Below, piece after piece: positions 7,994 through 55,959 of a DNA stretch of 64,000 nucleotides. The position numbers were made by a program, and so were the translations under genes. Numbering within the stretch: the stretch's first letter is position 1; each line of letters opens with the position of its first letter. Under the pieces are notes generated by a model, which was not told the DNA's origin, did not search any database, and was given only the letters and a program-made list of their open reading frames with translations. The DNA is taken from positions 843,627 to 907,626 of the forward strand of contig CP129477.1 in assembly GCA_030583825.1 (NCBI GenBank), written 5' to 3'. Source of the DNA: Candidatus Dojkabacteria bacterium. Its GTDB lineage: Bacteria > Patescibacteriota > Dojkabacteria > GCA-002793355.

Positions 7994-8034
7994 AATGCAT
8001 TGTTCTGTGCTTTAGCACTTTAAGGAGAATTGAA

Positions 8035-8286: not shown

Positions 8287-8484
8287 ACTTTCATCGCGCG
8301 GACAAAGGACACTCTTTTTTTAGCCTCACCTTTGTCACGCAACAAGCCTTTTCAACCAATAAAACAAGTTCCCTATCATAACTGTTACATATTTTTGTCC
8401 TCACTGTAAAAGTAGATAAAGATCTATAGTCGTGAGATAATTCGTTTAGTATTCTGTGCTTAATGCACTTGAAAAAGGACGGTT

Positions 8485-13339: not shown

Positions 13340-13352
13340 TGATATGTCAAAA

Positions 13353-13916
13353 CTACACGATCACTTCGTAAATTCCCAAATTTGGTGCTTTAAAAGAAAA
13401 TATTTCTTCAATATTTTTCTGTCCACTTGCTAAAAGTGCAAGACGTACGATTGCACCGCTTGTTACGCAAATTCCATTCTGGTATGTACTGCTTTTAAAA
13501 TCATCTAAAAAACTTTTTACTCGAGGTAAGGTTTCTTCGTATGATTCGATAGTCTCAATTTTGTAGGAGTACTTTTCGTACGGAGAATGCGGGTTATATT
13601 TATGAACTTTTTCCATCTGAGGAACTGTCCATCCTTCAAATTTACCAAAACTTCTCTCGTTCATTCTTTCGTCCTGGATGATCTCAAGAGGATACTGCTT
13701 TGACAACTTTTTGTAGAGTAAATCTGCTAAAAATTCAGTTCTGCCGTTGAATGCATAATATATTGCGTCAACTCTTTGCTTTGGACGAAAGTTCTGTACA
13801 AATGCTCTACTGGTCTCTTTGCCGTAGTCTGTAACAGGACTATCGAGTGTTCCTTGCAGGCGATCTTCAACATTCCACACAGTTTGTGGATGGCGAATAA
13901 AATACAGTGTTTTCAT
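13353..13916 (-). CDS. histidine phosphatase superfamily (phosphoglycerate mutase-like) protein
   Basis: The N-terminus LYFIRHPQTVWNVEDRLQG corresponds to the RHG catalytic motif region of branch-1 histidine phosphatases. Confidence 0.6.
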   Translation of the reverse strand: MKTLYFIRHPQTVWNVEDRLQGTLDSPVTDYGKETSRAFVQNFRPKQRVDAIYYAFNGRTEFLADLLYKKLSKQYPLEIIQDERMNERSFGKFEGWTVPQMEKVHKYNPHSPYEKYSYKIETIESYEETLPRVKSFLDDFKSSTYQNGICVTSGAIVRLALLASGQKNIEEIFSFKAPNLGIYEVIV

Positions 13917-13918
13917 GA

Positions 13919-14998
13919 CTACAAATATATCACGGTACTTGGGTCTTTCTCAAGTTGTGCAAGAAATTCCTTTAGTTTTGTATTGTCATTTTTGTGGAAA
14001 ATAGCGACAACATCTTTGGTGTTAACAACGACAAAGCCCTTTAACCCAATGGTAACCACAAGCTTGTCCGCTTCTGTATTGTAAATGAGTGTATCTTCTG
14101 ATCCCATATCTTTTGCAGGGCCAATAGCAACGTTGCTTTCGGGGGAAGATTCTAATGTCTCTTTAAGTGCAATCCATTCTCCAATATCGCTCCAGCCAAT
14201 ATCTGCAAGCAAAACTCGAGCATCTTCTGGTTTCAAGTACTCAGCATACGCATAGTCTGCGGAGATTTTTTCCAGCTTAGAAAATTTCTCACATGATTCT
14301 TCTGAAAAATCTGACTCAACCATTTCTGTAACCACATCGTAGATTTCTCTTGCACTGTCTTTGTAGCCTTTTAGAAAATCTTGACCAAAGGCTGCCCAAT
14401 ATCCTGGATTCCAACCATATGTTCCTGCGGCAATATACTCTTTAGCTACTTCCATTGTTGGCTTTTCTACGAACCGTTCAAACTCCGCAAGCTTTATTTG
14501 TCCACCATACTGTGAGTCAAGAACTTTTCCAAAATGAATATATCCTCTATGTGGTGAAGGAAACCGCGCGGGAACTGCCAAAAATACTGTTTTCTTTTCT
14601 TGCTTTACGACCTCTTCTGCTTTTTTGATTGCAGTAATAAATGCAATTGGATCTTTTATGTGGTGATCTGTCCACTGTGTCATGATGACTTCATCTGGAA
14701 ACATTTTTGTAACATATGCAATAGCAAGTCCCACTGCAGGGCCTGTATCGCGCATCATTGGCTCGGCAATGATATTTTCTTTAGGGAGCTCAGGAATAAT
14801 CTGTTCAACTTCGTGACGATACTGTTGCCCAAGGCTGACAAATATATCACTTGCAGGAAATGCTTCGCGAAGCAAATCGTAGCGAATTCGCAACAATGGC
14901 TTATCTTCAATAATAGCGAGGAACTGTTTTGGCGACTTCACACGACTGACTGGCCAAAAACGTTTTCCTGTTCCTCCTGCAAAAAGAATAATTTTCAT
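13919..14998 (-). CDS. sugar-phosphate nucleotidyltransferase, mannose-1-phosphate guanylyltransferase-like
   Basis: The N-terminus MKIILFAGGTGKRFWPVSRVKSPKQF matches the GGxGxRLWPLSR signature of ManC/CpsB-type nucleotidyltransferases. Confidence 0.65.
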   Translation of the reverse strand: MKIILFAGGTGKRFWPVSRVKSPKQFLAIIEDKPLLRIRYDLLREAFPASDIFVSLGQQYRHEVEQIIPELPKENIIAEPMMRDTGPAVGLAIAYVTKMFPDEVIMTQWTDHHIKDPIAFITAIKKAEEVVKQEKKTVFLAVPARFPSPHRGYIHFGKVLDSQYGGQIKLAEFERFVEKPTMEVAKEYIAAGTYGWNPGYWAAFGQDFLKGYKDSAREIYDVVTEMVESDFSEESCEKFSKLEKISADYAYAEYLKPEDARVLLADIGWSDIGEWIALKETLESSPESNVAIGPAKDMGSEDTLIYNTEADKLVVTIGLKGFVVVNTKDVVAIFHKNDNTKLKEFLAQLEKDPSTVIYL

Positions 14999-25137: not shown

Positions 25138-26745
25138 ATGGCAGATATGCAATCTTTAGAAACTAAGTCGGCACAACCGGTGCAAAACAATATAGGTGAC
25201 CTCGAAGGTATTTTAGAGGCGCGTCCTCCTTTAGGAAATCGCCATTCTTCTTCACGAAAACCCAACGAAGCCGCAACACTCAACTATTTTGACCTGAACA
25301 ATGAAGAGGCTCGTGAGCGAGCCTTACACATACAGGAATCACTCCGCAGGCAACATTTCCATAAAGTCCACACAATGTACGAAGCATTTGAGACAGAACC
25401 AGGTGCTGTAAACGCTTTGAGACGAGATACTGTTAATAACATTGCTGCAATGCAGTGGTTTCCTAGGCACTCTCAAGAAGCACAAGAATACTTCGAGGAG
25501 ATGGTTCCAGACGAAGATCTTCGTAAACAAATTCAGCTTCATTACAGTGAATTCTTCACATATGTTCATAGAGAAGTCGCCCGAGCAGTACTTTCGCCTC
25601 GAAAGTGTGAAACAATGTTTGCCGACAAAGGACTCTTGAGCAGAATTAGAAAGAACCTTCCAGCGCATCTTATTCCTGCTGCAGAAGAACTCACAGAACA
25701 GCTTATTGATGACTACTATCAACAGCTAAACAACCTCATTGACGAAGAAAAGCTCGCAAAATATGAACAAAATGTTTGTTACGAGCTAGATTGGTACGAT
25801 GATGGCTATAGCCTACACAAGAGAAAAAGAAATATTATTTTGCTTAACGGCCCAGTTGGCTCAGGAAAAGGAACGACGCTTGAACAATTAGAAGCTGAAG
25901 CTGTAGAAACAGGAACTGCCGGTATTGCCGGACGTGGTGGACAATCAAAAGAAAAACGCGATAAATTAGAAGGTGGCCCAAACAGATACGATCGTTGGGA
26001 ATATGTTTCCGGCGGACTTGACCGTTCACGCAAAAAGCAGAGACGAATTCCTGACCGCGTTATGCGTATGTGGCTTGCAATGGAACTTATGCAAAAGCGT
26101 GGAGAGCTTGATGCAGAAGGAAAATTCGACGAGCCTATTTATATCTCGGGTTATCCTCGCGAGGTTGATCAAACAAAACTCTTTGCGCATCTTGACCAGG
26201 AGCAAGTTGTTTCTGTGTATATGGAAATTTCTGAACAGGAAGCAGCAACGCGAACGCTAAGCCGCATGATTGAGCAAAGTGTCGCAACTGCAATGGATGC
26301 AAGAGCTATTGAAAATGCTGAGCTTTCTCGTGCAGAAAAAGATGCAAGACTTGCAAAGTTGGAATATTACCGCGGAGATGACTTTAAATCTTTGGACTTT
26401 TCAAATGCTCCAGAAGTTAGACAGATGATCTTGCGGTTTAATAAAGACATGCTTGCTGCGTTGCAAATCGTAGATCCACACGGGAAAATAGAGTTGAAAA
26501 AACTACAGGAAAAAATTAAAAAAGCAATTTTTGAGAATCACAAGGCAGCGATTGAACAGCTATTGCTGGCACGTGGAGACGAAGGTCATAAAGGAGAAGC
26601 TCGATATCACCTCGACATGCGCAACAAAAGGTCTATTATTGAAGCATCCGAGTCAATGGGTATTGAAACAATTATCGTTCAATGTGACGGTAAAGCCCCA
26701 CCGCAGGTAACTGAAGAAGTGGCACAATATGTCCGCGCAGCCTAA
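25138..26745 (+). CDS. hypothetical protein (535 aa) with an embedded adenylate/NMP-kinase-like P-loop domain
   Basis: NIILLNGPVGSGKGTTLEQLEAE is an NMP-kinase-type P-loop. Then VSGGLDRSRKK (compare AK ISTGDMLR) and PIYISGYPREVDQTKLF (compare AK GFLLDGFPRT). These are flanked by a ~230-aa N-terminal and ~170-aa C-terminal extension with no recognisable motifs. Confidence 0.45.
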   Translation: MADMQSLETKSAQPVQNNIGDLEGILEARPPLGNRHSSSRKPNEAATLNYFDLNNEEARERALHIQESLRRQHFHKVHTMYEAFETEPGAVNALRRDTVNNIAAMQWFPRHSQEAQEYFEEMVPDEDLRKQIQLHYSEFFTYVHREVARAVLSPRKCETMFADKGLLSRIRKNLPAHLIPAAEELTEQLIDDYYQQLNNLIDEEKLAKYEQNVCYELDWYDDGYSLHKRKRNIILLNGPVGSGKGTTLEQLEAEAVETGTAGIAGRGGQSKEKRDKLEGGPNRYDRWEYVSGGLDRSRKKQRRIPDRVMRMWLAMELMQKRGELDAEGKFDEPIYISGYPREVDQTKLFAHLDQEQVVSVYMEISEQEAATRTLSRMIEQSVATAMDARAIENAELSRAEKDARLAKLEYYRGDDFKSLDFSNAPEVRQMILRFNKDMLAALQIVDPHGKIELKKLQEKIKKAIFENHKAAIEQLLLARGDEGHKGEARYHLDMRNKRSIIEASESMGIETIIVQCDGKAPPQVTEEVAQYVRAA

Positions 26746-27547
26746 AGACACCGAAATTCGGTATTACCACCCTCCTGAGAAAGACTTTGAGCCGGTTGCT
26801 CTTGGACGCGAAGTTTTGCCGGGTGGAAAATTCGCAATAATTACGACTGTAGAATGTCCAGAAGAAGTGAAAGACACAATTCGCGCCAATGCCGATGAGA
26901 ACGAAGGAATGTTTCTCGCAGGTGATTTTATTGGCTCAGCATCCCGTCGAGTTGTAACCCGATTAAACTCACGCGAAGAAAGACCCCATGCAATCGCTGT
27001 TGTAAAAAGAAAAGCACAAGTGCCGCAGGATGGATATATGCGAAGGTTCACAACTTTCAGCTTAGTTAACGAGATTAGAATGGCCCATGCTACCAATGAT
27101 ATTATTGATGCAGAAGGATTGCGTGACTATTCCGTAATGTATCAGGATCAAGAAGTTGATATTCAGTTTGACGTGCAAGTGCCTTTTGGTGGTGTATATG
27201 GAATTACCCCGGAAACCCGAAATCAGCGTTATGGATTGTTTCAGTTTCATTCTGGAACTTCTGTCCGCGATGAAGTGGCAATGTCTTACGGGTGGAATCA
27301 CCTCACACAGGAAGAACGTTTGCTCTATGGAAACCTTTTTCATGGACAGTTAACAAATCTTCATGTCGCGGCTGCTTCAAAATACGGGATTTATACACAT
27401 GATTTAGGAGTTCACCAGCTATTGTATAACGAATCACGTAACGATGGAAAAACAAAGTACCAACTCACGATTCTTGATACTGAAGAATTTTACCCTTGTG
27501 AGCCTTTTGTTCCAGGTGGACTGTTTCCTGTTATATGTTTTCTTTAG
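26729..27547 (+). CDS. hypothetical protein (272 aa), translationally coupled to the upstream kinase-like gene
   Basis: Its start overlaps the upstream stop by 17 nt. No recognisable motif. FHGQLTNLHV...LTILDTEEF has a faint resemblance to the catalytic loop/DFG region of a kinase-like fold, which is weak. Confidence 0.4.
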   Translation: MSAQPKDTEIRYYHPPEKDFEPVALGREVLPGGKFAIITTVECPEEVKDTIRANADENEGMFLAGDFIGSASRRVVTRLNSREERPHAIAVVKRKAQVPQDGYMRRFTTFSLVNEIRMAHATNDIIDAEGLRDYSVMYQDQEVDIQFDVQVPFGGVYGITPETRNQRYGLFQFHSGTSVRDEVAMSYGWNHLTQEERLLYGNLFHGQLTNLHVAAASKYGIYTHDLGVHQLLYNESRNDGKTKYQLTILDTEEFYPCEPFVPGGLFPVICFL

Positions 27548-39161: not shown

Positions 39162-41015
39162 ATGGCACTGCCCTACACCGGTGTTGATTTGCGATTGCTG
39201 AATGCCCTTGTGCAACAGGGAAAGCTTACAAATGAGCAAGCTGAAGCCCTAAAACTCGAGTCTGCGCAGCAAAGTAAGTCTGAAATAACACTGATACTTG
39301 AAAAAAATTTACTCTCCGAAACGGATGTTTATAGAGTCAAGGCACAAATTTATAATGTGCCTTTCATTGAGGATATTAGCGGTGTCACTGTTCCCCAGGA
39401 AGTTCTTACCGGCTTAAACGTTGATACGCTCAAAGAGCAAATGGCTTTCCCATTTGAAATCACTGAGCAAAAAGTAAAAGTATTGATGGCTGACCCGTTC
39501 AACGTGGGTGCTATTCAATTCTGGCGTGTCCGATATATTCCAAGACAAATCGAAGTGTACACGTCTACTCCATCGGTAGTCGCGTCGTTTGTTAACACAA
39601 AATTTGGAAACTTAATCGGGGGCGAGGTCGCCTCTGCTGTATCATCATATAAACAAGATGCCGGGCAATCTGGTATTGACGAAACTGTCATTAGTGAAGG
39701 TGGCGATCTTGGTACAGATTTGCAAAGCGCTCCTGTCGCAAAAATAGTTAACACAATATTGGTATATGGTGCTCGTGTAGGCGCATCAGATATCCATATT
39801 GAACCGCAGGAAAACTCTATTCGTGTGCGATACCGTATTGATGGTGTTATGCAGGAAAGAATGAATTTGCCAAAAGATTTGCAAGCGCCAATTGTGGCAC
39901 GTATCAAAATTCTTTCAAACCTTAAAATTGACGAAACTCGTCTTCCGCAAGACGGTCGTATCTTTATCAAAGTAGATAATCGAAGCTTCGACTTACGTGT
40001 ATCAACACTTCCTGCAATTCAGGGTGAAAAAACAGTAATGCGTTTGCTTGAGCGTACGACAGGTATTCCTCCATTGGAAGAGTCAGGTCTTCGCGGCTCT
40101 GCATATCGAAAATATCTTGAAACAATTAAGCTTACGAACGGAATCATTCTGATTACTGGGCCGACAGGTTCAGGTAAAACGCGTACACTTGCTTCGACGC
40201 TCTCACGAATGAACGATCCAAAGGTAAACATTATTACCATTGAAGATCCGGTTGAAATTCGTGTTGGCGGTATTAACCAGGTTCAGATTCACCACGAAAT
40301 TGGACTTGACTTTGCGACAGTACTTCGTGCGGTATTGCGACAAGACCCGAATATCATCATGGTTGGTGAAATTCGTGACGGCGAAACTGCGACATTGGCT
40401 ATTCGTGCTGCATTGACTGGTCACTTGGTTCTTTCTACTTTACACACAAACTCTGCGGTAGCAGCGCTTACTCGTTTGACTGATATGGGAATTGAATCAT
40501 ACTTGGTTTCTTCAACAGTAAAAATGGTTGTTGCACAGCGTCTTGTGAGAACTGTGTGTCCATACTGCCGTGAGCCATATGCTGCATCTCCAAGTGATGT
40601 CGAAGAACTACAGGAGCAATTCAAATCTATTCAAAATTTTGACATGTTTTCATATTTAGAAGCGTTGGCACAGAAAAATGGAAACCCTCCGAATGACTCT
40701 GTTGAGTTTAAATTTGCTCCTCCTGTAAAAGCTCCTGAAACATTACCGGATGGAACAAAGCAAATGTATCTGTACAAAGGAAAAGGTTGCTCTCGTTGTG
40801 GTGAAAGCGGATATAAAGGTCGTATGGCTATCTTCGAAGTCATTTCTATTACTCCACGGTTGGGTGAGGCCATCACTCAGAATGTTCCGTACGACGTATT
40901 GCAGAAAATTGCAGTTGAAGAAGGAATGATTACGATGTACCAGGACGGTTTCTTAAAAGCAATTGAAGGAATTACCTCTATGGCTGAGGTTATGAGGGTT
41001 GCGAAAAGTGAATAA
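39162..41015 (+). CDS. pilB: type IV pilus assembly ATPase PilB (GspE family)
   Basis: GSPII_E N-terminal domain. Walker A ILITGPTGSGKTRTLAS, Asp box, His box TGHLVLSTLHTN, and a tetracysteine CPYC...CSRC zinc motif. Confidence 0.85.
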   Translation: MALPYTGVDLRLLNALVQQGKLTNEQAEALKLESAQQSKSEITLILEKNLLSETDVYRVKAQIYNVPFIEDISGVTVPQEVLTGLNVDTLKEQMAFPFEITEQKVKVLMADPFNVGAIQFWRVRYIPRQIEVYTSTPSVVASFVNTKFGNLIGGEVASAVSSYKQDAGQSGIDETVISEGGDLGTDLQSAPVAKIVNTILVYGARVGASDIHIEPQENSIRVRYRIDGVMQERMNLPKDLQAPIVARIKILSNLKIDETRLPQDGRIFIKVDNRSFDLRVSTLPAIQGEKTVMRLLERTTGIPPLEESGLRGSAYRKYLETIKLTNGIILITGPTGSGKTRTLASTLSRMNDPKVNIITIEDPVEIRVGGINQVQIHHEIGLDFATVLRAVLRQDPNIIMVGEIRDGETATLAIRAALTGHLVLSTLHTNSAVAALTRLTDMGIESYLVSSTVKMVVAQRLVRTVCPYCREPYAASPSDVEELQEQFKSIQNFDMFSYLEALAQKNGNPPNDSVEFKFAPPVKAPETLPDGTKQMYLYKGKGCSRCGESGYKGRMAIFEVISITPRLGEAITQNVPYDVLQKIAVEEGMITMYQDGFLKAIEGITSMAEVMRVAKSE

Positions 41016-41035
41016 ATTGGATACTATTTGATTAC

Positions 41036-42469
41036 ATGGATGGAAACGCCCCCGTGACTCCAAATGTCACGCAAAATTCAGACTTTTCGGTGTCCCAATT
41101 TGCCGGTGCTCCGGCTGCATCACCTTCGATTCCTAGTGCACCTATGCCAATGCCGGGAACATCGGATATGAACGCGAATGTTTCACAAAATATGCCTCAA
41201 ATGCCTCCTGCACCGCAAGTTGCACAGTCGTTTGCACCACCGACATTACCCCCTATGCCACAAGTACCCGCATCTCCGACCGTGGAACAGCAGATTCAAG
41301 ACGTTTCACAACTACCTCCACTTCCGCAAACACCTCAAAACAATGTTTCACAGCCTGCAGCAGCTGCAGCCTCGGCACCTATGGTTCAAGTTGTAGATTC
41401 TGTCAGCGGTGACATGAGTATTTTTCAGATGCTTGAGCTTGTTGCATCAAAAAACGCATCTGACTTACACCTTGTTGTTGGTTATCCTGCAATGCTTCGT
41501 ATTGATGGCGATCTTGTGAATATTTCCAGCACAATTGTCTCTCCGGATATGGCCAAGAAACTTGTATATGATGTCCTTCCTGACGATAAAAAAGAACAGC
41601 TTGAAGTAAATCGTGAAGTTGACCTTGCATATGGATACGAAGGAATTGGACGTTTTCGTATTAACGCATATTATCAGCGTGGATATATTTCTGCAGCATT
41701 TCGTTTGATTCCTACACGTATTAGGACATTAGACGAATTGAAAGTTCCCGCTATTTTTAAAGAATTTGCAGAGCTTGAGCAAGGATTGGTATTGGTAACC
41801 GGCCCGACAGGTCACGGAAAATCAACAACGTTGGCAGGTATTATTCAACAAATTAACGATACTCATCCAAAGCACATTCTGACTATTGAAGATCCAATTG
41901 AATACGTATTTCCACAATCAAAAGCGTTAGTTTCTCAGCGTGAGCTTGGCGACGATACTCATTCATGGAAAGGTGCACTTCGTGCAGCACTTCGTGAAGA
42001 CCCAGATGTCGTACTCGTTGGTGAAATGCGTGACTATGAAACAGTTAACTCTGCAATCACTGTTGCAGAAACAGGTCACTTGGTTCTTGCAACACTTCAC
42101 ACGAACAATGCAGCTCAAACAATTCAGCGTATTATTAACGTTTTTCCCGATGTTCAGCAGGAAGAAGTCCGCGCACAGCTTGCAGACATTCTTGAAGTTG
42201 TTGTCGCGCAGCGATTGATTCCTATTAAAGGTGGTGGACGTCGTGCAGCCGTTGAAATCATGTTGATGACTCCGGCAATTAGAAACCTTATTCGTGAAAA
42301 TAAGATCTTCCAAATTGACAATGTTATTCGTACAAGTCTTGATCTGGGAATGATCACCTTAGAGCGCTCATTATTGAATATGTTCCGTGAAGGATTAATT
42401 GATAGAGAAGATGCATTGCGATATGCACTCGATGCATCAGAAATGCAGCGATTAATTAATGAAGGTTAA
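41036..42469 (+). CDS. pilT: PilT-like pilus retraction ATPase with a ~120-aa Pro/Gln/Ala-rich disordered N-terminal extension
   Basis: VLVTGPTGHGKSTTLA, VLVGEMRDYETV and GHLVLATLHTNNAAQTIQRI are PilT motifs. The N-terminus is low-complexity (PQMPPAPQVAQSFAPPTLPPMPQVPASP). Confidence 0.8.
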   Translation: MDGNAPVTPNVTQNSDFSVSQFAGAPAASPSIPSAPMPMPGTSDMNANVSQNMPQMPPAPQVAQSFAPPTLPPMPQVPASPTVEQQIQDVSQLPPLPQTPQNNVSQPAAAAASAPMVQVVDSVSGDMSIFQMLELVASKNASDLHLVVGYPAMLRIDGDLVNISSTIVSPDMAKKLVYDVLPDDKKEQLEVNREVDLAYGYEGIGRFRINAYYQRGYISAAFRLIPTRIRTLDELKVPAIFKEFAELEQGLVLVTGPTGHGKSTTLAGIIQQINDTHPKHILTIEDPIEYVFPQSKALVSQRELGDDTHSWKGALRAALREDPDVVLVGEMRDYETVNSAITVAETGHLVLATLHTNNAAQTIQRIINVFPDVQQEEVRAQLADILEVVVAQRLIPIKGGGRRAAVEIMLMTPAIRNLIRENKIFQIDNVIRTSLDLGMITLERSLLNMFREGLIDREDALRYALDASEMQRLINEG

Positions 42470-42492
42470 ATTTAATTATTAATGAAATAGCT

Positions 42493-43881
42493 ATGGCAGA
42501 CGAAGCAGTGGTCGGACAAACTCAGCAGACACCAGGAATTCCTGGTACAGTTCCGGCACAGCCACAGCCTACTGAAAGCTCTCAGACAATGCCAGCAACG
42601 GCAACGTCATCACAAGCTCCAACTCAGGCACCTGCCGCGTCTTCAGCTCCGCAAGGAGGTGGACAGAAAAAATTCTTTGAGTACGTTAGTCTCGACAAAG
42701 ACGGAAAGCGTGTGAAAGGAAGCATGTCTGCCTATACAAAAGAAGAAGTTGTACAAAGTGTCGTTTCACGAGGACTTTCAATTATCTCCATTGACGAAGT
42801 ATCAGGATTATTCTCGCTTGAACGATTAAAAGAAATCAACATCGGTGGTGTTCCGCTTGATGAAAAGGTGATTTTCATGAAACAGATCGCAATTATGATT
42901 AATGCGGGTTTGTCGGTTACCCGTGCATTGGAAGTTTTAAGTTTTCAAGCGCAAAACCCGCGATTCAAAGCAGTATTAAAAGAATCGTATAAATTAGTGT
43001 CAGGTGGAGTCAGCTTGTCTGACGCCTTTGGAAAGTTCCCTGACGCCTTTGATAGTATTGCAGTAAGCTTGATTCGAGCTGGTGAACAATCAGGTAACTT
43101 AGACAAGATCTTTCGTAAGCTCGCGACAGAATATCAAAATAGAAAACAGTTGCAAGGAAAAATTCAGGGAGCACTCGCCTATCCTGCCGTTATCACAACA
43201 TTAATGGTTGGCGTTGTTATCTTCTTAATGCTCTTTGTCGTTCCACAGTTGCAACAGGCATTTGAAGAATTCGGAGCAGAACTTCCACTTATTACGAAAA
43301 TTGTTATTGGCCTTAGCAATATCCTTATACATTATTGGTATATCGTTATTGTTCTTATTGTTTCAATTGTTGTCGCGTTCCGATACTTTATTTCGACTCC
43401 GCAAGGAGACAGATTGTGGCAAAAAATGTGGATTACTATTCCTGTATTTGGGCCACTAAATGTTAAAATTCAAACAGCAAACTTTGCCCGTATTTTGTAC
43501 TTGCTTATCAGCAGCGGTGTTCCTATTTTGCAAGGCTTGGACTTGACTGAAGCTGCAATGACAAACATTTGGTTTAAAGACGAAGTCGCCGACATGCGTG
43601 AGCAAGTAAAGCGAGGTATCCCTATTGCACAGCCATTGATGCAGAGCGCAAACTTTCCTCTCATTTTGGGATATATGGTAAACGTTGGACAGGAAACCGG
43701 TAAGCTTGACGAGGTCTTAAAGAAAGTCTCGAAGTACTACGACATCGAAATTAAAGCTGCCAGCAAAGCATTGTCCACAATTTTGGAACCGATTCTGCTT
43801 ATTGTCATGGGTGTTGTTGTTGGTGGTATTGTCGTTGCAGTGTACCTGCCGATGTTCCAGTTGACACAGCAAATACAATAA
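42493..43881 (+). CDS. pilC: type IV pilus platform protein PilC (GspF family) with a low-complexity N-terminal extension
   Basis: Two GspF repeats and 3 TM helices. N-terminus QTPGIPGTVPAQPQPTESSQTMPATATSSQAPTQAPAASSAP. Confidence 0.8.
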   Translation: MADEAVVGQTQQTPGIPGTVPAQPQPTESSQTMPATATSSQAPTQAPAASSAPQGGGQKKFFEYVSLDKDGKRVKGSMSAYTKEEVVQSVVSRGLSIISIDEVSGLFSLERLKEINIGGVPLDEKVIFMKQIAIMINAGLSVTRALEVLSFQAQNPRFKAVLKESYKLVSGGVSLSDAFGKFPDAFDSIAVSLIRAGEQSGNLDKIFRKLATEYQNRKQLQGKIQGALAYPAVITTLMVGVVIFLMLFVVPQLQQAFEEFGAELPLITKIVIGLSNILIHYWYIVIVLIVSIVVAFRYFISTPQGDRLWQKMWITIPVFGPLNVKIQTANFARILYLLISSGVPILQGLDLTEAAMTNIWFKDEVADMREQVKRGIPIAQPLMQSANFPLILGYMVNVGQETGKLDEVLKKVSKYYDIEIKAASKALSTILEPILLIVMGVVVGGIVVAVYLPMFQLTQQIQ

Positions 43882-43920
43882 ACTAGAATGAAATAACTTA
43901 ATTAATATTGCCCTTTTACC

Positions 43921-44517
43921 ATGAAAAAATTGAAAGGTTTTACCCTCCCGGAGCTTCTTGTCGTCATGGCTATTATTGCCTTCTTGACCGTAGGATCATT
44001 CGCAGGTTTGACATTCGGTCTTCGACAAGCACGTGATACGCAGCGACGTACACTAACAAGCTCAATTAACACTGCGTTGCTTGCATATTATGCAGACTAT
44101 CAGCAGTATCCAGGAGCTCAGCCAACGACACCAAACATTGGATGTACAGGCTCAGGTATTTTGTCAGGAAGCTTCACATACGTTCGTTGTACAAACGCAA
44201 TGACAGCAACTGGCGGTATCTTGTTCACAAGAGGTAACAACGGTCTTGCAGACTACTTTGAAGGAACATTTAACTGGGGCCCGATTGACCCTAACGCTAA
44301 CCCACCATTGATTGGTTACTATGCAGGAACTGCAGGTGGTACAAATACTCGTGCTCTTAAATATGGAGTATGTGTTGTTCTTGAAAACCCGAACGGTGGA
44401 AACATCGCACGACCAGCCGCAGCAGGTGGCCCTTCAGTTGGAAAAAGAGACTGTTTCTGTTTAGGATCTGACTACTCACCATATGCGTGTGTAGGTCTTG
44501 GATCATTGCAGCAGTAA
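43921..44517 (+). CDS. type IV major pilin (prepilin N-terminal cleavage/methylation domain)
   Basis: MKKLKGFTLPELLVVMAIIAFL is the class III signal peptide (G|FTLPE). Cysteines in the C-terminal domain. Confidence 0.75.
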   Translation: MKKLKGFTLPELLVVMAIIAFLTVGSFAGLTFGLRQARDTQRRTLTSSINTALLAYYADYQQYPGAQPTTPNIGCTGSGILSGSFTYVRCTNAMTATGGILFTRGNNGLADYFEGTFNWGPIDPNANPPLIGYYAGTAGGTNTRALKYGVCVVLENPNGGNIARPAAAGGPSVGKRDCFCLGSDYSPYACVGLGSLQQ

Positions 44518-44564
44518 CGCGTCGTTCAGATTTATCGAGACTACGCGTCTCTCAAAATCCTTAC

Positions 44565-44612
44565 CTCCGCAAAAGAGATTGTGAAAACTTTCTCAATTGC
44601 GGAGTTTTTTTG
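44565..44612 (+). terminator. Rho-independent terminator after the major pilin gene
   Basis: CTCCGCAA-N24-TTGCGGAG followed by TTTTTTTG. Confidence 0.55.
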
Positions 44613-44658
44613 TTTATTATCTCTTGCGACAATTCCCAATAACTGACACAATCACTGT

Positions 44659-45426
44659 ATGGATATTATTCAACTTGAACTAGGGGTGTATCTCTTTCTT
44701 GTCGGACTTCTTATTTCGGAATTTATCCAAGTGCTTGTTGATAGAGACAACAATTCTTCTTCCATTTTTGACCGCTCTCGTTGCGATCATTGTAAAAAGC
44801 CTGTTCCGTGGTATGGCATGGTTCCCTTGTTTGGATATTTTCTTGTAAAAGGAAAATGTATTCACTGTGGTAAGAAAATTTCTTTAAACTACCCTCTTTT
44901 TGAATGGTCGTTTGCAATTATGTGGGCAGCCACCTTAATTCTTATTCCTCACACAATTATTTCTGCACTGATTTTTCTGTCCATACTTTGTGTTGTGTGG
45001 TATCTTGCCTACTACGACCTAAAACAGTTTGAAGTGCCCGTTATCGCGCTTGTTGTCTTTGGAATACTTCTTGGAATCTTTCACTTATTTGTGATGCCGC
45101 TTAGGCTTGATGTCGTTTCAGTGCTCTTAATGGCTCTTATCATCGTGGTTGCCATTGTTGCTGTCATGTTTCAAAAGCAAGACGCAGCATTTAGTGAGCT
45201 ATTTGGCCTTGCCGACTGGATCGTCATTTTGGCAACTGCCCTTCTCTTTGGTATAGAAGCGACAGTTATTGTTATCTGTATCTCTGTTGGAATATTTGTT
45301 CTTTACTTATTGCTTTCGTTTGGATTGAAACTCAAACAAATGAAAGGCGTCCCCTTTCTATTCTGGTATCTGCCGATTTGGTACTGGTACTTGCTTTATC
45401 TGACCACAACAGTAATTGTTCGCTGA
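44659..45426 (+). CDS. pilD: prepilin peptidase (A24 family)
   Basis: CDHCKKPVPWYGMVPLFGYFLVKGKCIHCGKKISLNYPLFE (CxxC...CxxC zinc motif) and a multi-TM aspartyl peptidase body. Confidence 0.75.
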   Translation: MDIIQLELGVYLFLVGLLISEFIQVLVDRDNNSSSIFDRSRCDHCKKPVPWYGMVPLFGYFLVKGKCIHCGKKISLNYPLFEWSFAIMWAATLILIPHTIISALIFLSILCVVWYLAYYDLKQFEVPVIALVVFGILLGIFHLFVMPLRLDVVSVLLMALIIVVAIVAVMFQKQDAAFSELFGLADWIVILATALLFGIEATVIVICISVGIFVLYLLLSFGLKLKQMKGVPFLFWYLPIWYWYLLYLTTTVIVR

Positions 45427-46106
45427 ACATTCTGCACTGTTGGGCGTCCATTCATCTGAAGCTTTGAATCAAGCTTGAACGCCACAGATACTGTGGTAAA
45501 TGTTTGCCCGGTAAGGCTGTCGCTTGCAGTTTCGCACGAAAGTTGAATATCTTTTACATTGACATCTCCATACGTAAGAACTGAGCGCACGGCTGTTCCT
45601 GCCTGAGGTTTTTGAATAAAGATAAATCGGCCAGTATTTAGTCCTATGTCTGCAACTTCATAGCCGAATGTATATGTTTCTCCCGATCCTAAAGGCTGCC
45701 AGGTCACAGAGTTTACGGTGAATGTATTTGGTCGCAATGCTGATCCATTACACATGTTTATTGCTGTATTTTGGCCAACAACAACAAGTGTTCGAGGATC
45801 TGCGTTCTTTGCGTATAGCTCGAAAAATTCTGAAACAAATTCTCCCTCTGTTCTCACGGATGTTCGGGCATCAATCATGTAGGAACCAAGCAAAATTGCG
45901 TTAAACGACTGCATAATCATTAAAAAGATAATAGAAAGTATTGTCATAGAGATTAATGTTTCAGCAAGTGACAATGCCGCAATCTTCTGGAATCTCTCTT
46001 TGAGTGTTTGGTGTTTTGTTACGTGCTCCATGCTAGTTTGTACCTGTTCTGTAAACATAAATAGTAAGGACAACCGGTTTGTAGTCTGCAGGAAGGCACT
46101 GCCCAT
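45396..46106 (-). CDS. putative minor pilin/pseudopilin
   Basis: IAALSLAETLISMTILSIIF is a class III signal-like segment (A|LSLAE with E at +5). The ORF start is uncertain. Confidence 0.45.
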   Translation of the reverse strand: MGSAFLQTTNRLSLLFMFTEQVQTSMEHVTKHQTLKERFQKIAALSLAETLISMTILSIIFLMIMQSFNAILLGSYMIDARTSVRTEGEFVSEFFELYAKNADPRTLVVVGQNTAINMCNGSALRPNTFTVNSVTWQPLGSGETYTFGYEVADIGLNTGRFIFIQKPQAGTAVRSVLTYGDVNVKDIQLSCETASDSLTGQTFTTVSVAFKLDSKLQMNGRPTVQNVQRTITVVVR

Positions 46107-46644
46107 TTATACAGGCTACAGTGACTGTAAACTGAGCGAACGATCCCGTTCCTGATGCGAGCTGTCGCAATTCAATTAAACGGCCAAATAAAGCATCTGA
46201 GCCTGTTTGGCTTACTGCTGTAACAGAGCATGAACTGTCAAATGTCTGGTCTGAGCGTAATCCACATGTTTGTGTCATTGTTGTGAGAGATGCAATTTTG
46301 TTACTTCCCTGCTGTGTGTATGTGACATAGGCTCGCCCATTAACTGATCTGAATACTCCCGATGGGCCGATAAGTCCATTCCATGATTCGTCTTTCTCTT
46401 TTTTGATAATTTCTACTCCTTCGTTGGCAAGTGTTAACATTCTATCCTGTAATTCGAGCTTTTTTACTTGTCGCAATGCTGCAAATGTCGTGTTAAGAAC
46501 TGATACAAAGACGAGCGATACAATAGCAAGTGCAATCAAAACCTCAACAATGCTTAGCGCAAGCACTTTCCTTTTAATTGTTGATTGCGGAGATGTTTCC
46601 ATCTGTTCGAATGGTAATTTTAGTGCTTGAAAAATTTGTTCCAA
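46033..46644 (-). CDS. putative minor pilin/pseudopilin
   Basis: RKVLALSIVEVLIALAIVSLVF (A|LSIVE with E at +5). Confidence 0.5.
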   Translation of the reverse strand: MEQIFQALKLPFEQMETSPQSTIKRKVLALSIVEVLIALAIVSLVFVSVLNTTFAALRQVKKLELQDRMLTLANEGVEIIKKEKDESWNGLIGPSGVFRSVNGRAYVTYTQQGSNKIASLTTMTQTCGLRSDQTFDSSCSVTAVSQTGSDALFGRLIELRQLASGTGSFAQFTVTVACINGQCLPADYKPVVLTIYVYRTGTN

Positions 46645-47209
46645 TGTCTAATCCCCCAAGGCTTGTAATATCTTGAGTGCCACAATACACAACAGGCGTG
46701 CCGTTGACAGATTTAAACATGACACGCATTCTGCTTCCGGTTCCTGTACAAATTGCGGCTCCATTTGGTCTATAAAATGCAAATGTCGCATTTGAATCAA
46801 TCACTCTAACGTCGCTGGAACGATTAAAGTTATAGTTTGAGATATTTGCCGGGTACGGAATATAAAAGGTATTACTTTCAAGGTTTGGAGTGCTATGCTG
46901 TAGCTTGACTGTGTAATATGTCCATTGTTGAAGCGCATTATCAAATGCAATTTCTATACCGACAGCATGAACCCAGTTTTCATTCACATCTTTTGTAATA
47001 AGCATTGAGGAGCGCCGTGCGCTTCGTGCTGTAACAACAACTTCTTTGAGTATTTGTCCGGAAATAAAGACGTTTCGAGTGTTTGCTCCCAGTACTAATG
47101 CGATCAGAAAAAGCATAGAAGTAATAAGCATGACAATCAATAACTCTATCATTGTGAACGCTTTTACGTTGTACTTTTTCTGTCCAGAGACAGGGGGCAT
47201 ATCCTTCAT
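46574..47209 (-). CDS. putative minor pilin/pseudopilin
   Basis: KKYNVKAFTMIELLIVMLITSMLF (A|FTMIE with E at +5). Confidence 0.55.
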   Translation of the reverse strand: MKDMPPVSGQKKYNVKAFTMIELLIVMLITSMLFLIALVLGANTRNVFISGQILKEVVVTARSARRSSMLITKDVNENWVHAVGIEIAFDNALQQWTYYTVKLQHSTPNLESNTFYIPYPANISNYNFNRSSDVRVIDSNATFAFYRPNGAAICTGTGSRMRVMFKSVNGTPVVYCGTQDITSLGGLDIGTNFSSTKITIRTDGNISAINN

Positions 47210-47779: not shown

Positions 47780-50473
47780 TTAATTGATTAGATTATTATC
47801 TTGATTATCGGGAGAATTTGTCATTGTGTCAATGATTGTATCAATATTCACATAGTCGGGATGGTTGCCTGACTGTGCTTGCACCTCAAGCATGTAACGT
47901 GCGATATTTGCTTCAATATAATCCTGAATTGCGCGCTTTAGTGGACGCACTCCCATTCCCGGGTTATATCCAATATCTGCAAGAAAGTTTATTGTTCGTT
48001 CTGAGTACTCTGCGGTGATTCCCTGCAATGCGAGTTTGCCGACAAGCTCGTTAAGATTCAGAATACAAATTTCAACAATGTGGTCGCGTGTGAGAGGTTC
48101 AAAAATAATGGTTTTATCAAAACGGTTGATAAATTCCGGGCGGAAGTATTCGGGTAACATGTTTAGCACTGTTTCTTTTGCCTGATTATATTCTTCAGGT
48201 GGCGCGTTGAGTAACAGATCACTTCCAATGTTGCTTGTACAAATAATAATTGAGTTATTAAAATAAAGATTATCACCTTTTTCGGTAACAATGACGCCTT
48301 CATCGAACAAGCGAAGGAACATGTCCAAAATGAATTGCGGTGCTTTCTCGATTTCATCTAAAAGCAAAAGCGAGTATGGGCGGACAGTCACCTTTTCAAG
48401 AATTTTCATAATTGAAGGCATGTCTGCAGCGGTTTTAAATTGTGACAAGTCAACTCGGATAACAGAATAGTCTCCTCCGAAATATTCTCGCGCAGTTATT
48501 TTTGCAAGTTCGGTTTTTCCAACACCTGTTGGCCCAAGAAACATAAATACTGAGATAGGACGTTGAGTGTTTCTCAGCATTGTTTGCGCTCGTTGCAATG
48601 CCTCAACTATAGCCCGGACTGCTGAGTCTTGGTTTACATATTTCTCGTGAATTTTGTCTTCCAGGTTTAAGAGTGTATGAGCCGAGCCTTGAGACGCTGC
48701 AATTGTTGGTATCTTTGTTATTTCTGATATTGTTTCACGCACAATTTCTCTTGTGAGCTTTTTCTCTGGTTTTCTCGAAGCAAGTATGACTGCCTGATCT
48801 AAAACTTCTACAGCTTTCTTAGGGAATCGCTTGTTTGGCATATAAATCTGTGTCATTTTTAAAATCTCTCCAAGTGCTGGGAAACTAATAAAGGTGTTGT
48901 ATTGCTTTTCATACTCTTCTACTTTTGTTGCGAGTATCGAGTATGTGTCTTCTGTGCTTACTTCATCCACTCGAACAATGCTGAAACTTTGCAAAATGGA
49001 CGGATATTGTTTCTCAAAATCATTATATTGCGCATATGTCATCGTTCCCACAATTGGGACGGGACTCTGAATTAAAAGTGGAAGCAAATATGAAATTGTC
49101 GAGCCTTGACCTGTCCCTGTTGTCACGAGTACTTCGAGCTCATCAAAGAAAAGAATTGTTCCTACCTGATTTTTGAGCTCGACAGAAAGCTTTTCGATAA
49201 GTGCAGATACCCCACCAAGGTCATTCCCTACTGATAAGAATCTGTTAATATCAATTGTTTTAATAATCAATCCGCGAAGTGATGGTGGAACATCGCCTTC
49301 AATAATCTTTTGTGCTAATCCCCAAATAATACTGCTCTTTCCAACCCCTGGGTCTCCAACTAAAATCGTGTTTGCATCATAACTTTTTTGTAAAATGCTC
49401 ATTAAATAATTAATCTCTTTTGTATGGCCAATTCCGTAAAGACCACCTCTCTCAGAGATAATTTCAGTAATGTTTGATGAAATTTTATCCAGATAAAACG
49501 TATAGCCTTTTACCCATGAGTCAACAATTCCGCCTTTCTGATAATATGGCTGTTTCAGATTAAACATATTGGTACGGCCTTTGAATTGCTCAGTAATAAT
49601 GTACCATTCGATAATCTTTTCGAATGTTGTCATGTCTACCTGGTATTGCTTGAGTACGTCTTTTAACACAGGGAACATATGAAACATAGCGAGAAGTATG
49701 TGTTCTGGATAGACTTGAAAGCTTTTTGTCGCAATTGCCTGTTCCAATGCGTACAGCAAGAACGACTGCATTGCCATAAATGGGAATGTCGGAGCAGAGT
49801 CATCGGTAATAGGCACTTGGAGCAATGCTTCTCCTGCGTCATCAATTTCAAGGCGTTTTAGAATTCTCTGTGTATGTTCATGTTTCACAACAAACTGCAG
49901 AAGCTTCTGAGTATTACACTCATAACCCTCGCGTGAATGAACAATTGCTTCGTATAAAATCTTCTTTGTCATTGGGTGGAAATATTCCAACGGGTCTTTA
50001 AGCTTAAAATGTGAGAACTGCATTGTATTTTGGCTTATACTTTCAGCGATGAAATCGTCCATCACGGGGTAACGCGTTAGCAGTTTAGGCGCGTCATATG
50101 TTGTTGCAAGGTCATGCCACAGAACTAAAATTGCAAGCGCTGCAAGGTACACGACTTCTTTTGCGAAGATGATAAATAAATCAGGAAGTCCGCTTACCCC
50201 AACACCAAAAAGATTCATGACGTATAGTGCACCCATCGGGATTGCAAGTACTAATATGCCAGTGGCAATCATTCTTTTTAGTCGTTTAAATACTTCACGC
50301 GCTTTGTGGTAACGAATTTCTTCTTCAAGTTTCTCAAGAACAACGGTGAAAATATCAAATTGCGTGACAATAAATGGCTCAAACGAAGAATCAAGTACGA
50401 CGGCATAGTTATTATATACTTGCATCTGGTTTGTTATTTTGTCTTTGTATGCGGTAATCGCGGCTTTTGTCAT
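47780..50473 (-). CDS. membrane-anchored Hsp100/Clp-family AAA+ ATPase (two AAA modules, no M-domain)
   Basis: N-terminal ~130 aa with two TM helices (ATGILVLAIPMGALYVMNLF; VVYLAALAILVLWHD). Then Clp_N-like repeats, D1 ILVGDPGVGKSS and D2 [16 protein letters not shown] with LLLDEIEKA and the sensor [10 protein letters not shown]. Only a short D1-D2 linker. No obvious (I/V)G(F/L) ClpP-docking tripeptide after the TSNIGS segment. Confidence 0.6.
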   Translation of the reverse strand: MTKAAITAYKDKITNQMQVYNNYAVVLDSSFEPFIVTQFDIFTVVLEKLEEEIRYHKAREVFKRLKRMIATGILVLAIPMGALYVMNLFGVGVSGLPDLFIIFAKEVVYLAALAILVLWHDLATTYDAPKLLTRYPVMDDFIAESISQNTMQFSHFKLKDPLEYFHPMTKKILYEAIVHSREGYECNTQKLLQFVVKHEHTQRILKRLEIDDAGEALLQVPITDDSAPTFPFMAMQSFLLYALEQAIATKSFQVYPEHILLAMFHMFPVLKDVLKQYQVDMTTFEKIIEWYIITEQFKGRTNMFNLKQPYYQKGGIVDSWVKGYTFYLDKISSNITEIISERGGLYGIGHTKEINYLMSILQKSYDANTILVGDPGVGKSSIIWGLAQKIIEGDVPPSLRGLIIKTIDINRFLSVGNDLGGVSALIEKLSVELKNQVGTILFFDELEVLVTTGTGQGSTISYLLPLLIQSPVPIVGTMTYAQYNDFEKQYPSILQSFSIVRVDEVSTEDTYSILATKVEEYEKQYNTFISFPALGEILKMTQIYMPNKRFPKKAVEVLDQAVILASRKPEKKLTREIVRETISEITKIPTIAASQGSAHTLLNLEDKIHEKYVNQDSAVRAIVEALQRAQTMLRNTQRPISVFMFLGPTGVGKTELAKITAREYFGGDYSVIRVDLSQFKTAADMPSIMKILEKVTVRPYSLLLLDEIEKAPQFILDMFLRLFDEGVIVTEKGDNLYFNNSIIICTSNIGSDLLLNAPPEEYNQAKETVLNMLPEYFRPEFINRFDKTIIFEPLTRDHIVEICILNLNELVGKLALQGITAEYSERTINFLADIGYNPGMGVRPLKRAIQDYIEANIARYMLEVQAQSGNHPDYVNIDTIIDTMTNSPDNQDNNLIN

Positions 50474-53535: not shown

Positions 53536-55959
53536 ATGGAAGGAGAAAGAATAGACATTCTGCAGTTTTTCTCGCAGAAAGCAAAAGAAATGCTTGCATT
53601 GGCAATTGAGCGTGCCCAGTTGCGTAACAGCTCATTTGTTGACACGGAAGATTTATTGTTAGAGCTCACAAAATCCAGCGAATTGGTACAACGTATTTTA
53701 AAAGAGCTGAAAGTTGACGTTTCATTATTAGAAGAATATCTCGAAAATAACTTGCCTACTGTGCGAAACGCCGGCGAAGGGTTAGATTTATCTCCGCGTA
53801 TGAAGCAGGCGTTACAGCTTGCATTTCAGGAATCTCGAGAACTTGGTCACTCATACGTTGGCCCAGAGCATATGTTGTTGGGTATTATTCGCGAACAGGA
53901 CGGATTTGGAGCACGAACACTTGCAAAATATGATGTTACATTGATTAATGCTCGACAGGCTGTGCAGAAAATTGTTGGAAAAGGCGATGAATCCGGTCAG
54001 GAGTCATCTGAGAAAACAAATACTCCTACATTGGACAAATATTCACGAAATCTTACCGCACTTGCGCAGAAAGGGAATATTGACCCCGTTATTGGCCGTA
54101 ATGACGAAATTACCCGTTTGATTCAGATTCTCATCCGTAGAAGGAAAAATAATCCGGTACTTATTGGTGAGCCTGGAGTCGGAAAAACCGCAATTGCTGA
54201 AGGTCTTGCCCATAGAATTTTAAGCGATGGCGTTCCAGACGAGCTAAAAGGTAAGGTTGTGAAAGAGTTAGATCTTGGCGCGCTTATTGCAGGAGCAAAG
54301 TTTCGTGGAGAATTTGAAGAACGCGTAAAAAAAGTTATTGAAGAGTTACAAAAATCTAGCGGAAGCATCATTTTATTCATTGACGAATTGCACACCGTTG
54401 TAGGTTCGGGTGCACAGGAAGGACAAATGGATCTTTCAAACATGCTAAAACCTGCCCTTGCCCGTGGCGAGTTTCAGATTATCGGTGCAACTACTCTTTC
54501 TGAGTATAAAAAGTATATCGAAAAAGATGCTGCTTTAGAGCGACGTTTTCAGCCAATTCTCGTAGAAGAACCAACAGTCCAGGCAACAATTGGCATGCTT
54601 GAAGGAGTTCGTGACCGTTACGAAGCATTTCACAAAGTCAAAATTGAGAGTACCGCGATTGAGCAAGCCGCCCACCTTTCCGATCGTTACATAAAAGACC
54701 GATTTCTGCCTGATAAAGCATTTGATGTGTTAGACGAGGCATGTAGCGTTGTAAAAATGGAGTCTCAGTATGAGCCAAACGACCTTCGTGAACTAAAGCA
54801 GCAAATTGCAGGACTTGAAAAAGAGCGTGAATCGTTGACGAGGTCACAACAGTTTGAAGAAGCCGCAAAAATGAAGCAGGAAATTGAGCATTTGAAAGAG
54901 AAATTGGCACCTGTAGCCGAGGAATGGGAAAAAACGAAGTCAAGGGGCACCCCCGTGGTTACACCTGCCATAATCGCCACTGTATTAGCTAAAATGACCG
55001 GTATTCCAGTATCCCAATTACAGCAAGAAGAGCGTCAAAAACTACTTGAATTAGAGAAGGTGCTTCATAGCCGCGTTATTGCTCAAGATGAGGCTATACA
55101 GGCCGTTTCAGAGGCCATACGACGTGGCAGAGTGGGCCTTGGGGATCCAAACCGCCCAATTGCGTCATTTTTGTTTCTTGGGCCGACAGGAGTTGGTAAA
55201 ACAGAGCTTGCAAAAGCACTGGCCGAGTTTGTATTTGGTGACGAAGAAGCAATTATTCGCATTGATATGAGCGAATATATGGAACAGCACAGCGTTGCAA
55301 AGCTTATTGGCTCTCCTCCGGGATATATTGGCTACGAAGAAGGTGGTCAGCTTACAGAAAAAGTCCGACGTATGCCCTACTCTTTGATTTTGCTCGATGA
55401 AATTGAAAAAGCTCATCCAGATGTTTTGAATATCTTACTGCAACTTTTGGACGATGGACGGTTAACAGACGCAAAAGGCCGCACCGTGGACTTCAAAAAT
55501 ACTGTTGTGATTGCTACCAGTAACCTTGGCGCTCACTTTATTGTTGAGTTTCTCAAGCAAAAAGAGCGAAAGCCCGGTGAATGGGATGGTGTCAAAAAAC
55601 AAATTGGCGAATTATTGAAGAGGCACTTTAGGCCAGAATTTTTAAATAGAATTGACGATGTCATTATTTTCCATCCATTGGAGATTGCCCATATTGAGGG
55701 AATTGTTGCAATGCAGCTCGATCGCGTTCGCAGAATGCTTGAGGCACAAAAAATTACCGCAACATTTGAACAAAGCCTGATTGAACATATTGCCGATACT
55801 GGCTTTGATCCAGAATTTGGGGCACGTCCATTGAAACGAGCCATTCAGAAAGAAGTCGAAAATGAACTGTCAAATATGATTTTGTCAGGGAAGGTTAAGG
55901 AAGGTGATGAGATAAGTGTGGGGTTTGTGAAAGGAAAAGTTGTTGTTAAAGGGAAATAA
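53536..55959 (+). CDS. clpC: ATP-dependent Clp ATPase ClpC-like (Hsp100)
   Basis: Two Clp_N repeats, D1 [19 protein letters not shown], a short coiled-coil linker, D2 [19 protein letters not shown], and the sensor [10 protein letters not shown]. 807 aa. Confidence 0.8.

Follow-up and report, generated by a model that had tools for sequence, protein, structure and literature searches.

The retraction ATPase PilT of a type IV pilus (T4P) locus in Candidatus Dojkabacteria carries a long, disordered N-terminal tail with a conserved tip, and comparative sequence data indicate that this tail is encoded and selected. The locus lies in a 64,000-nucleotide (nt) stretch of contig CP129477.1 (the window, 64 kb) and comprises eight co-located genes, five on the + strand and three convergent pilin-like open reading frames (ORFs) on the - strand. 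The cluster itself is of a known kind: a chromosomal, type IVa-like, retractile, and secretin-less pilus module of the type found in the Candidate Phyla Radiation (CPR). The explanation that we favor, with reasonable but far from complete confidence, is that this cluster makes a PilT whose translated tail would serve as a leash with a docking tip, and that a second tail, on the platform protein PilC, would be a recent insertion.

Architecture of the tailed PilT

The pilT gene (41036 to 42469, + strand) encodes a protein of the PilT retraction type, scoring 456.6 bits against TIGR01420 (cutoff, 319.1) over residues 129 to 468. Its core (residues 127 to 477; 41414 to 42469, + strand) contains the Walker A (GPTGHGKST) and Walker B motifs, the Asp and His boxes, and the AIRNLIRE motif at residue 414, and it is predicted by AlphaFold2 with a predicted local distance difference test (pLDDT) score of ~90. 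The N terminus exceeds the family model by ~126 residues. Sequence and structure prediction together point to a three-part protein made of a conserved peptide of ~24 amino acids (aa), a disordered P/Q/A/S-rich spacer of ~100 aa, and the canonical hexameric ATPase core. The peptide (residues 1 to 24, MDGNAPVTPNVTQNSDFSVSQFAG; 41036 to 41107, + strand), identical in the relative L001, is a candidate short linear docking motif. The spacer (residues 25 to 126; 41108 to 41413, + strand) is rich in in-frame indels between relatives.

The 126-aa tail is 20% P, 13% A, 12% Q, and 12% S, and its 7 charged residues are all acidic, with no Lys or Arg. It has no transmembrane segment (maximum KD19 hydropathy, 0.87), and residues 1 to 122 are modeled without secondary structure at a pLDDT of 30 to 41. 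AlphaFold2 predictions of PilT and PilC were of single chains and used alignments of 57 and 41 sequences. A first-pass annotation of this DNA had described low-complexity N-terminal tails of ~60 to 120 aa on both proteins and had proposed disorder prediction as a check. The tails that we find measure 126 aa in PilT and 57 aa in PilC, and the pLDDT values, which are also low in PilC (39 to 45 over residues 1 to 55), agree with that description.

The start of pilT

A tail of this kind could be an annotation artifact, in which case pilT would truly start at Met127 (41414) and the upstream 378 nt would be untranslated sequence that gene callers had merged into the longest ORF. The public record follows the short form. 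NCBI entry P0002, which is the same gene (100% identical over 351 aa), is annotated as 351 aa from Met127, and the PilT entries of this clade that we examined at NCBI are all 349 to 356 aa long (P0002, P0012, P0020, P0022, P0085, P0094, and P0098). The sequence MSIFQMLELVASKNASDLHL resembles a canonical PilT N terminus, and M127-SIFQMLELVASKNASDLHL could pass for the beginning of a canonical PilT. Ribosome-binding sites are uninformative for the choice, as a Shine-Dalgarno sequence precedes only 3 of 49 window genes and none tells the two starts apart. A -10-like box, TACTAT (41022 to 41027, + strand), lies 8 nt upstream of the long-form ATG and at an equal distance before the long start in the relatives L001 and L003; the match to a -10 box is only 4/6 at both candidate starts.

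Comparison with relatives effectively refutes the short start, to which we assign very little probability. Met127 is Leu both in L001, which with L002 forms a pair of metagenomic relatives whose PilT is 84% identical, and in L003 (71% identical), and almost none of ~75 long homologs have Met at this position; neither L005 nor L006 offers an ATG within 12 codons of the canonical start. At six Patescibacteria loci, the open frame extends back to 10 to 20 nt from the pilB stop, and the first ATG opens a conserved peptide. One of the six, L007 (complete genome CP129470.1), is annotated short by NCBI and yet has an in-frame tail beginning MDLNTGTPI. Tails of 118 to 290 codons are free of stops in eight genomes, each with a shuffle probability between 6e-3 and below 5e-5, and the tail DNA of the window has 0 stops in frame 0 versus 2 to 7 in each other frame. 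Between the window and L001, the ratio of nonsynonymous to synonymous substitution rates (dN/dS) is 0.155 for the tail and 0.035 for the core, with dS saturated. The first 24 codons of the two genes differ at 10 nucleotides, all of them third-position and synonymous, so that the peptide is 100% identical. Finally, the long-form ATG lies 20 nt past the pilB stop, whereas an untranslated gap of 378 nt would be unusual in a cluster whose genes are otherwise ~20 to 40 nt apart.

Because Met127 is not conserved, the frame is open back to pilB, the dN/dS ratio is low, and the tip differences are synonymous, we infer that the long form is the gene and that its tail is encoded and selected. The first-pass annotation had named a wrong start codon as the finding that would undo its tails, and for PilT the evidence runs the other way. 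The short NCBI entries, whose genes or orthologs carry conserved tails in frame, look like a systematic truncation of start sites, probably brought about by homology-guided start calling.

Distribution and conservation of the tail

We compared the PilT core with 1.84 billion cluster representatives in an exhaustive HMMER search and considered the 136 single-core proteins among the best 150 matches. N-terminal tails were present in 93 of the 136, ranging from 61 to 753 aa (median, 253), and 77 of these 93 tails consisted of at least 50% P/Q/S/T/A/N/G. When proteins with a tail of at least 45 aa were counted by core identity, tails occurred in all 28 representatives at 55% identity or more, in 33 of 43 at 50 to 55%, and in 31 of 64 at 45 to 50%. 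A scan of genome contigs with PilT returned only four Patescibacteria loci. The ortholog comparison that the first-pass annotation had suggested bears out the extension for PilT.

Within each PilT sub-clade, a conserved extreme N terminus is followed by an indel-rich spacer. The tip consensus of clade A, to which the window protein belongs, is MDxNxP..NSD[FL]S[VL]xxFxGxP, that of clade B is MDLNTGTPIQxPSxQxPPxP, and that of a third large group is MPF[IV]DL[NS], while more distant members have DFSYP-like tips. A motif of the Φ-x-Y-P type is ~6-fold enriched in the first 45 tail residues relative to the rest of the tails. The window protein combines the conserved peptide, low-complexity spacer, and single PilT core by which we define the tailed PilT clade here, and in each cluster examined, the tail sits on the sole PilT. 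These patterns argue that the tail is an ancient, clade-wide, and selected feature. We found no description of N-terminal PilT tails in CPR in the open-access literature, where the presence of the tail in every close PilT relative sampled, its conserved tip, its range of ~60 to 750 aa, and its loss from the NCBI annotations examined apparently have not been described.

Comparison with other motors

Disordered termini on PilT-like motors already have precedents, of which those of CpaF and PilU are the closest and that of CpaF is the strongest experimentally. CpaF of Caulobacter crescentus is a hexameric pilus motor of PilT/VirB11-like type whose disordered N-terminal region escapes structure determination (PMC12019362). 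Truncation of this region lowered both pilus extension and retraction and left ATPase activity unaffected; the authors offer the mediation of protein-protein contacts as a speculative role for it (PMC12019362). CpaF differs in being a bifunctional Tad motor with a three-helix bundle behind a disordered region of ~79 aa, which most of its orthologs lack, whereas here the core is a bona fide PilT, the tail abuts it, every close relative is tailed, and tails reach ~750 aa. The protein is not a class II CpaF, as its core is that of PilT and is not preceded by a helical bundle; the helix that comes first (residues 129 to 138) is part of the PilT N-domain. The tailed PilT is therefore an analogue of CpaF and not a member of its class.

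Further precedents are two proteins of Myxococcus xanthus, PilU, with a C-terminal disordered region of ~112 aa and a suggested regulatory role, and the PilT paralog MXAN_6705, with a longer disordered N terminus (PMC13584747). Like the protein described here, both are retraction ATPases of the PilT family that carry, at one terminus, a disordered extension specific to their lineage. However, the tail of PilU sits at the C terminus and is found only in myxobacteria, and MXAN_6705 is an accessory paralog, while here the tail is borne by the only PilT of the cluster and its tip is a conserved peptide.

Possible roles of the tail

In the explanation that we favor, the PilT tail would be a flexible leash. 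Its terminal peptide would bind either a regulator or a component of the machine at its cytoplasmic base, with PilC, PilB, and, in genomes that have it, PilM as candidates. Such a leash would hold the retraction motor near the machine, raising the local PilT concentration, or would gate its engagement, and in this it would resemble the disordered N terminus of CpaF, the Tad ATPase. The N-terminal INLLP peptide of PilN, which binds PilM, is likewise a short conserved cytoplasmic peptide on a flexible segment, and the proposed docking of the PilT tip can be likened to it. The likeness is an analogy only, as the PilT tip motifs (MDxNxP..SDFSV, MDLNTGTPIQ, and MPFIDL) do not match INLLP. A more far-reaching version, which we put forward tentatively and hold to be doubtful, is that in Dojkabacteria and neighboring CPR the retraction motor is permanently leashed through its docking peptide, so that tethered competition at the platform, and not free diffusion of PilT, sets the switching between extension and retraction.

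Several points weigh against a leash. The docking partner of the tip is a candidate only, and single-chain AlphaFold2 predictions speak to contacts in cis, not in trans. The tip motif differs by sub-clade (the three forms above and DFSYP), so the tips need not share one universal docking site. That the long form is made is a prediction from comparative sequence data, and the window genome has an internal ATG (Met127), so a short PilT isoform may also be made. In addition, a largely neutral low-complexity region could show the same hypervariability as the spacer.

It is possible to extend this last point to the whole of both tails and to regard them as functionless low-complexity expansions, tolerated at the solvent-exposed N termini of PilT and PilC and drifting in length and sequence. 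Hypervariability of the spacer in sequence and in length (61 to 753 aa), the lack of predicted structure in either tail and of homology between the two, and a PilC tail that has a dN/dS of ~0.6 and is confined to two genomes are all in line with such drift. We nevertheless consider it unlikely. Each of the 28 closest PilT representatives is tailed, the extreme N terminus is conserved within clades under strong purifying selection, and the dN/dS of the PilT tail is well below neutrality. Tails of up to ~750 aa have been kept in small CPR genomes despite the tight gene spacing seen in the window, and P/Q-rich low-complexity segments occur in only 2 of the 52 window proteins, PilT and PilC, so they are not a genome-wide habit.

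Alternatively, the tail could act within its own protein and not on another, gating the PilT hexamer by autoinhibition or by entropy and tuning ATPase engagement or hexamer stability, as has been proposed for the C-terminal disordered region of PilU. The disordered region of PilU appears to be negatively regulatory (PMC13584747), the ATPase activity of CpaF trended up as its disordered region was shortened (PMC12019362), and the net negative PilT tail, devoid of Lys and Arg, would suit such a gate. We rate this possibility slightly below neutral drift. AlphaFold2 leaves the tip undocked on the monomer core, with a pLDDT of ~35 over residues 1 to 30, and a spacer that varies more than 10-fold in length fits a leash more easily than a precise intramolecular contact.

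Current thinking gives type IV pili a central part in host attachment and DNA uptake by the ultrasmall bacteria of the CPR. If a tail with a conserved tip is obligatory across the clade, public PilT annotations are systematically truncated, structural and functional inferences drawn from a canonical CPR PilT overlook a selected module, and a peptide of 24 to 30 aa would offer a concrete handle on how retraction is recruited or regulated in uncultured organisms. The large natural series of tails (~60 to 750 aa) also extends an emerging theme, exemplified by CpaF and PilU, in which disordered termini tune PilT-like motors. A leash, if real, would mean that these motors are controlled in a distinct way, hidden from view because the NCBI annotations examined cut the tail.

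Relation to PilM, PilN, and PilO

The locus resembles described CPR pili, such as T4P-1 of Saccharibacteria TM7x and the set of Meheust et al. (2019), in having PilB, PilT, PilC, a PilD-like peptidase, and several divergent pilins without PilQ, in its compact gene order, and in its well-conserved machinery proteins. PilQ is absent in CPR, and CPR pili normally include PilM, PilN, and PilO (PMC6744442), as do the T4P loci of CPR and Saccharibacteria (PMC11623550). In contrast, the PilM, PilN, PilO, PilP, and PilQ families matched none of the ORFs of 110 aa or more in the 64-kb window, and there was no family match to a secretin (PilQ/GspD) in the window. Pfam likewise gave no PilM, PilN, or PilO match in the relatives L001 to L007. 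A hidden Markov model (HMM) built from 119 CPR PilM sequences and probes for PilN and PilO found nothing on six-frame ORFs of the window or of the relatives L001 to L007; the PilM model recovered its positive control, in the sister Dojkabacteria locus L013, at E = 2.8e-150. None of the best 120 of 453 PilM matches falls on the contig carrying P0002 and P0121, the latter an NCBI PilC 100% identical to that of the window; this contig is presumably that of the window genome. The first-pass annotation was thus right that no pilM, pilN, pilO, pilP, or pilQ is present here. Its description of the gene set as CPR-style holds for the missing secretin, but the lack of pilMNO is untypical of CPR.

The order in L013 is pilB, a tailed pilT (639 aa), pilC, a pilin, pilD, two pilins, a 228-aa ORF, PilM (PF11104), PilN with a canonical FNLLPP N terminus, and a PilO-like ORF. 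Dojkabacteria-labeled PilM proteins exist, and several PilM and tailed-PilT matches lie on contigs of equal size (125314, 87329, 29716, and 46122). The absence of PilMNO here is either a feature of the locus in this sub-clade or a matter of genes located elsewhere in the genome.

One might suppose that the PilT tail stands in for the missing proteins and replaces motor recruitment by PilM, which contacts motors in canonical systems (background in PMC13584747). The absence of pilMNO from the window and from the loci of the close relatives L001 to L007 would suit this idea, but L013 has a tailed PilT beside PilM, PilN, and a PilO-like ORF, and the contigs of equal size point the same way. Since pilT is tailed beside PilMNO in L013, the tail either predates the loss of pilMNO at this locus or is independent of it. 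We therefore regard replacement as improbable, more so than gating in cis; on the sequence evidence, the tail does not appear simply to replace PilMNO.

PilC and its tail

pilC (42493 to 43881, + strand) encodes a platform protein with two T2SSF stretches. Its core (42664 to 43881, + strand) comprises T2SSF_N and two T2SSF domains (Pfam T2SSF, 1.1e-57), is matched by the GspF/PilC NCBIfam models from residue ~54 to 62 up to residue 462, and has an AlphaFold2 pLDDT of ~90. The tail (residues 1 to 57; 42493 to 42663, + strand) is an insertion between a conserved MA[DE][EQ] start and a conserved KKxFFEY. It is 18% A, 16% Q, 16% P, and 14% T, with 3 charged residues, all acidic, and no Lys or Arg, and it has no hydrophobic segment or predicted secondary structure.

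The PilC tail measures 57 aa in the window, 36 aa in L001, and ~7 aa in L003, and all other Dojkabacteria PilC proteins are 400 to 416 aa long. Thus, the two tails reported by the first-pass annotation are both real but not equivalent, as that of PilC is restricted to the window genome and its nearest relative. A wrong start can be set aside here as well: the only candidate starts upstream of KKxFFEY are Met1, Val6, and Met33, the MA[DE][EQ] start is kept in relatives, and NCBI annotates the 100% identical protein P0121 at 462 aa. Taken together, these comparisons indicate a real, young, and fast-evolving in-frame low-complexity insertion in two sister genomes. It would lie on the cytoplasmic N terminus of PilC and is probably nearly neutral.

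Two further ideas on the origin of the tails were rejected. Tandem Repeats Finder found nothing in 40900 to 42800 that would indicate a tandem-repeat origin, and DNA and protein local alignment scores between the PilT and PilC tails fell inside the shuffle null, which rejects a common origin.

Other genes of the pilus locus

Gene assignments were made with Pfam and NCBIfam models, and these, together with the ORFs and their coordinates, agree with the arrangement first proposed, in which pilB, pilT, pilC, a major pilin gene, and pilD share one strand and three pilin genes converge on them. A ComG pilus is not indicated, as the ComGA (245; cutoff, 300) and ComGB (133.9; cutoff, 240) scores fall short and PilT is present. 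The closest matches of PilT and PilC are from Candidatus Dojkabacteria. Relatives L001/L002 and L003 are syntenic over the whole neighborhood, in the order DUF4153 gene, holB, valS, pil genes, LemA, ClpB-like gene, methyltransferase, uppP, and murG, which marks this as a stable chromosomal locus. LemA adjoins the three convergent pilin ORFs; in the complete genome L007, an additional 605-aa ORF (12798 to 14615, - strand) lies between the third minor pilin and LemA. This ORF has no counterpart in the window; a large pilin of tip or adhesin type is one possible identity.

The assembly ATPase PilB (617 aa; 39162 to 41015, + strand) matches Pfam T2SSE (8.7e-121) and MshEN, has Walker A and B motifs, Asp and His boxes, and CPYC...CSRC cysteine pairs, and lacks an N-terminal tail. 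Its scores of 519 bits against TIGR02538, below the equivalog cutoff of 675, and ~520 bits against TIGR02533 suggest a divergent member of its family. The two CxxC pairs of its zinc-binding motif, within residues 466 to 546 (40557 to 40799), are 73 residues apart, with a proline-rich segment (...GNPPNDSVEFKFAPPVKAPETLPDG...) between them. As the NCBIfam PilB models also match in two stretches, the Zn module may hold an insertion. In the sister lineage L013, PilB (7501 to 9498; 665 aa) also has a low-complexity N-terminal tail (MDQLPNLQNPINTLQPNGLPTLDP...), and the 502 nt between pilB and pilT (9499 to 10000) are AT-rich and contain no open frame.

The major pilin (198 aa; 43921 to 44517, + strand; N_methyl, 2.1e-07; TIGR02532) has the prepilin site MKKLKG|FTLPELLVV, with Gly at -1, Phe at +1, and Glu at +5. 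A promoter-like TTGACA-17-TAGAAT (43861 to 43889, + strand; 11/12) lies 31 nt before the ATG of the major pilin, within the 3' end of pilC. This sigma-70-like site is a consensus match only, such sites being no more numerous in the region than expected by chance; it would permit separate high-level expression of the pilin.

The convergent genes, all on the - strand, encode minor pilin 1 (45396 to 46106; A|LSLAE, no Pfam match), minor pilin 2 (46033 to 46644; A|LSIVE, weak GspI and ComGE matches), and minor pilin 3 (46574 to 47209; A|FTMIE, N_methyl 5.6e-06). All four pilins of the locus have a class III signal peptide, and two of the four match N_methyl/TIGR02532. Ala had been noted at -1 in two minor pilins, but all three have it (ALSLAE, ALSIVE, and AFTMIE). 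The L003 orthologs of the convergent pilins have Gly at -1 (G|LTLIE in that of minor pilin 1), and the L007 major pilin has Ala; because the two residues interchange among orthologs, Ala at -1 appears to be ordinary and without special significance. Ala is the one substitution known to be tolerated by prepilin peptidases, and some Com pilins of Gram-positive bacteria have it naturally. For minor pilins 1 and 2, the starts given by the longest ORF probably lie too far upstream, since orthologs suggest Met26 for the former (45396 to 46031; the L001 ortholog is 209 aa) and Met15 for the latter (46033 to 46602).

The PilD-like prepilin peptidase (255 aa; 44659 to 45426, + strand) matches only A24_N_bact (1.3e-21) and not PF01478 (Peptidase_A24), so that its peptidase domain is divergent; the L013 ortholog has a weak PF01478 match. 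Candidate catalytic Asp residues (in YYDLK and GLAD) are invariant in a four-genome alignment that includes no characterized PilD, and the second motif reads GxAD instead of GxGD.

Other features of the window

Rfam identified only three tRNAs in the window. ORFs of 535, 272, 610, and 362 aa (25138 to 27547, 276 to 2108, and 12251 to 13339) had no Pfam match at E values up to 0.01 and matched no PilM, PilN, or PilO probe. A TATAAT-like box (at least 5/6, ending 3 to 14 nt upstream) precedes 39% of gene starts, for example at 18903, 21551, 60107, 53536, 38984, and 39162, versus 3.3% of internal ATGs. Because such boxes are this frequent and Shine-Dalgarno sequences this rare, the sequence suggests that leaderless transcripts are widespread in this Dojkabacteria genome.

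Also present are a BatA-like cluster (2302 to 7266, - strand) of a MoxR AAA+ protein, a DUF58 protein, and two VWA proteins, one of them VWA-TPR, and two Clp/Hsp100-type AAA+ proteins within 6 kb. The first of the latter (47780 to 50473; 897 aa) scores far under the ClpB and ClpA cutoffs and has a hydrophobic, membrane-segment-like start, while the second (53536 to 55959) is of regular ClpB/ClpC type in appearance.

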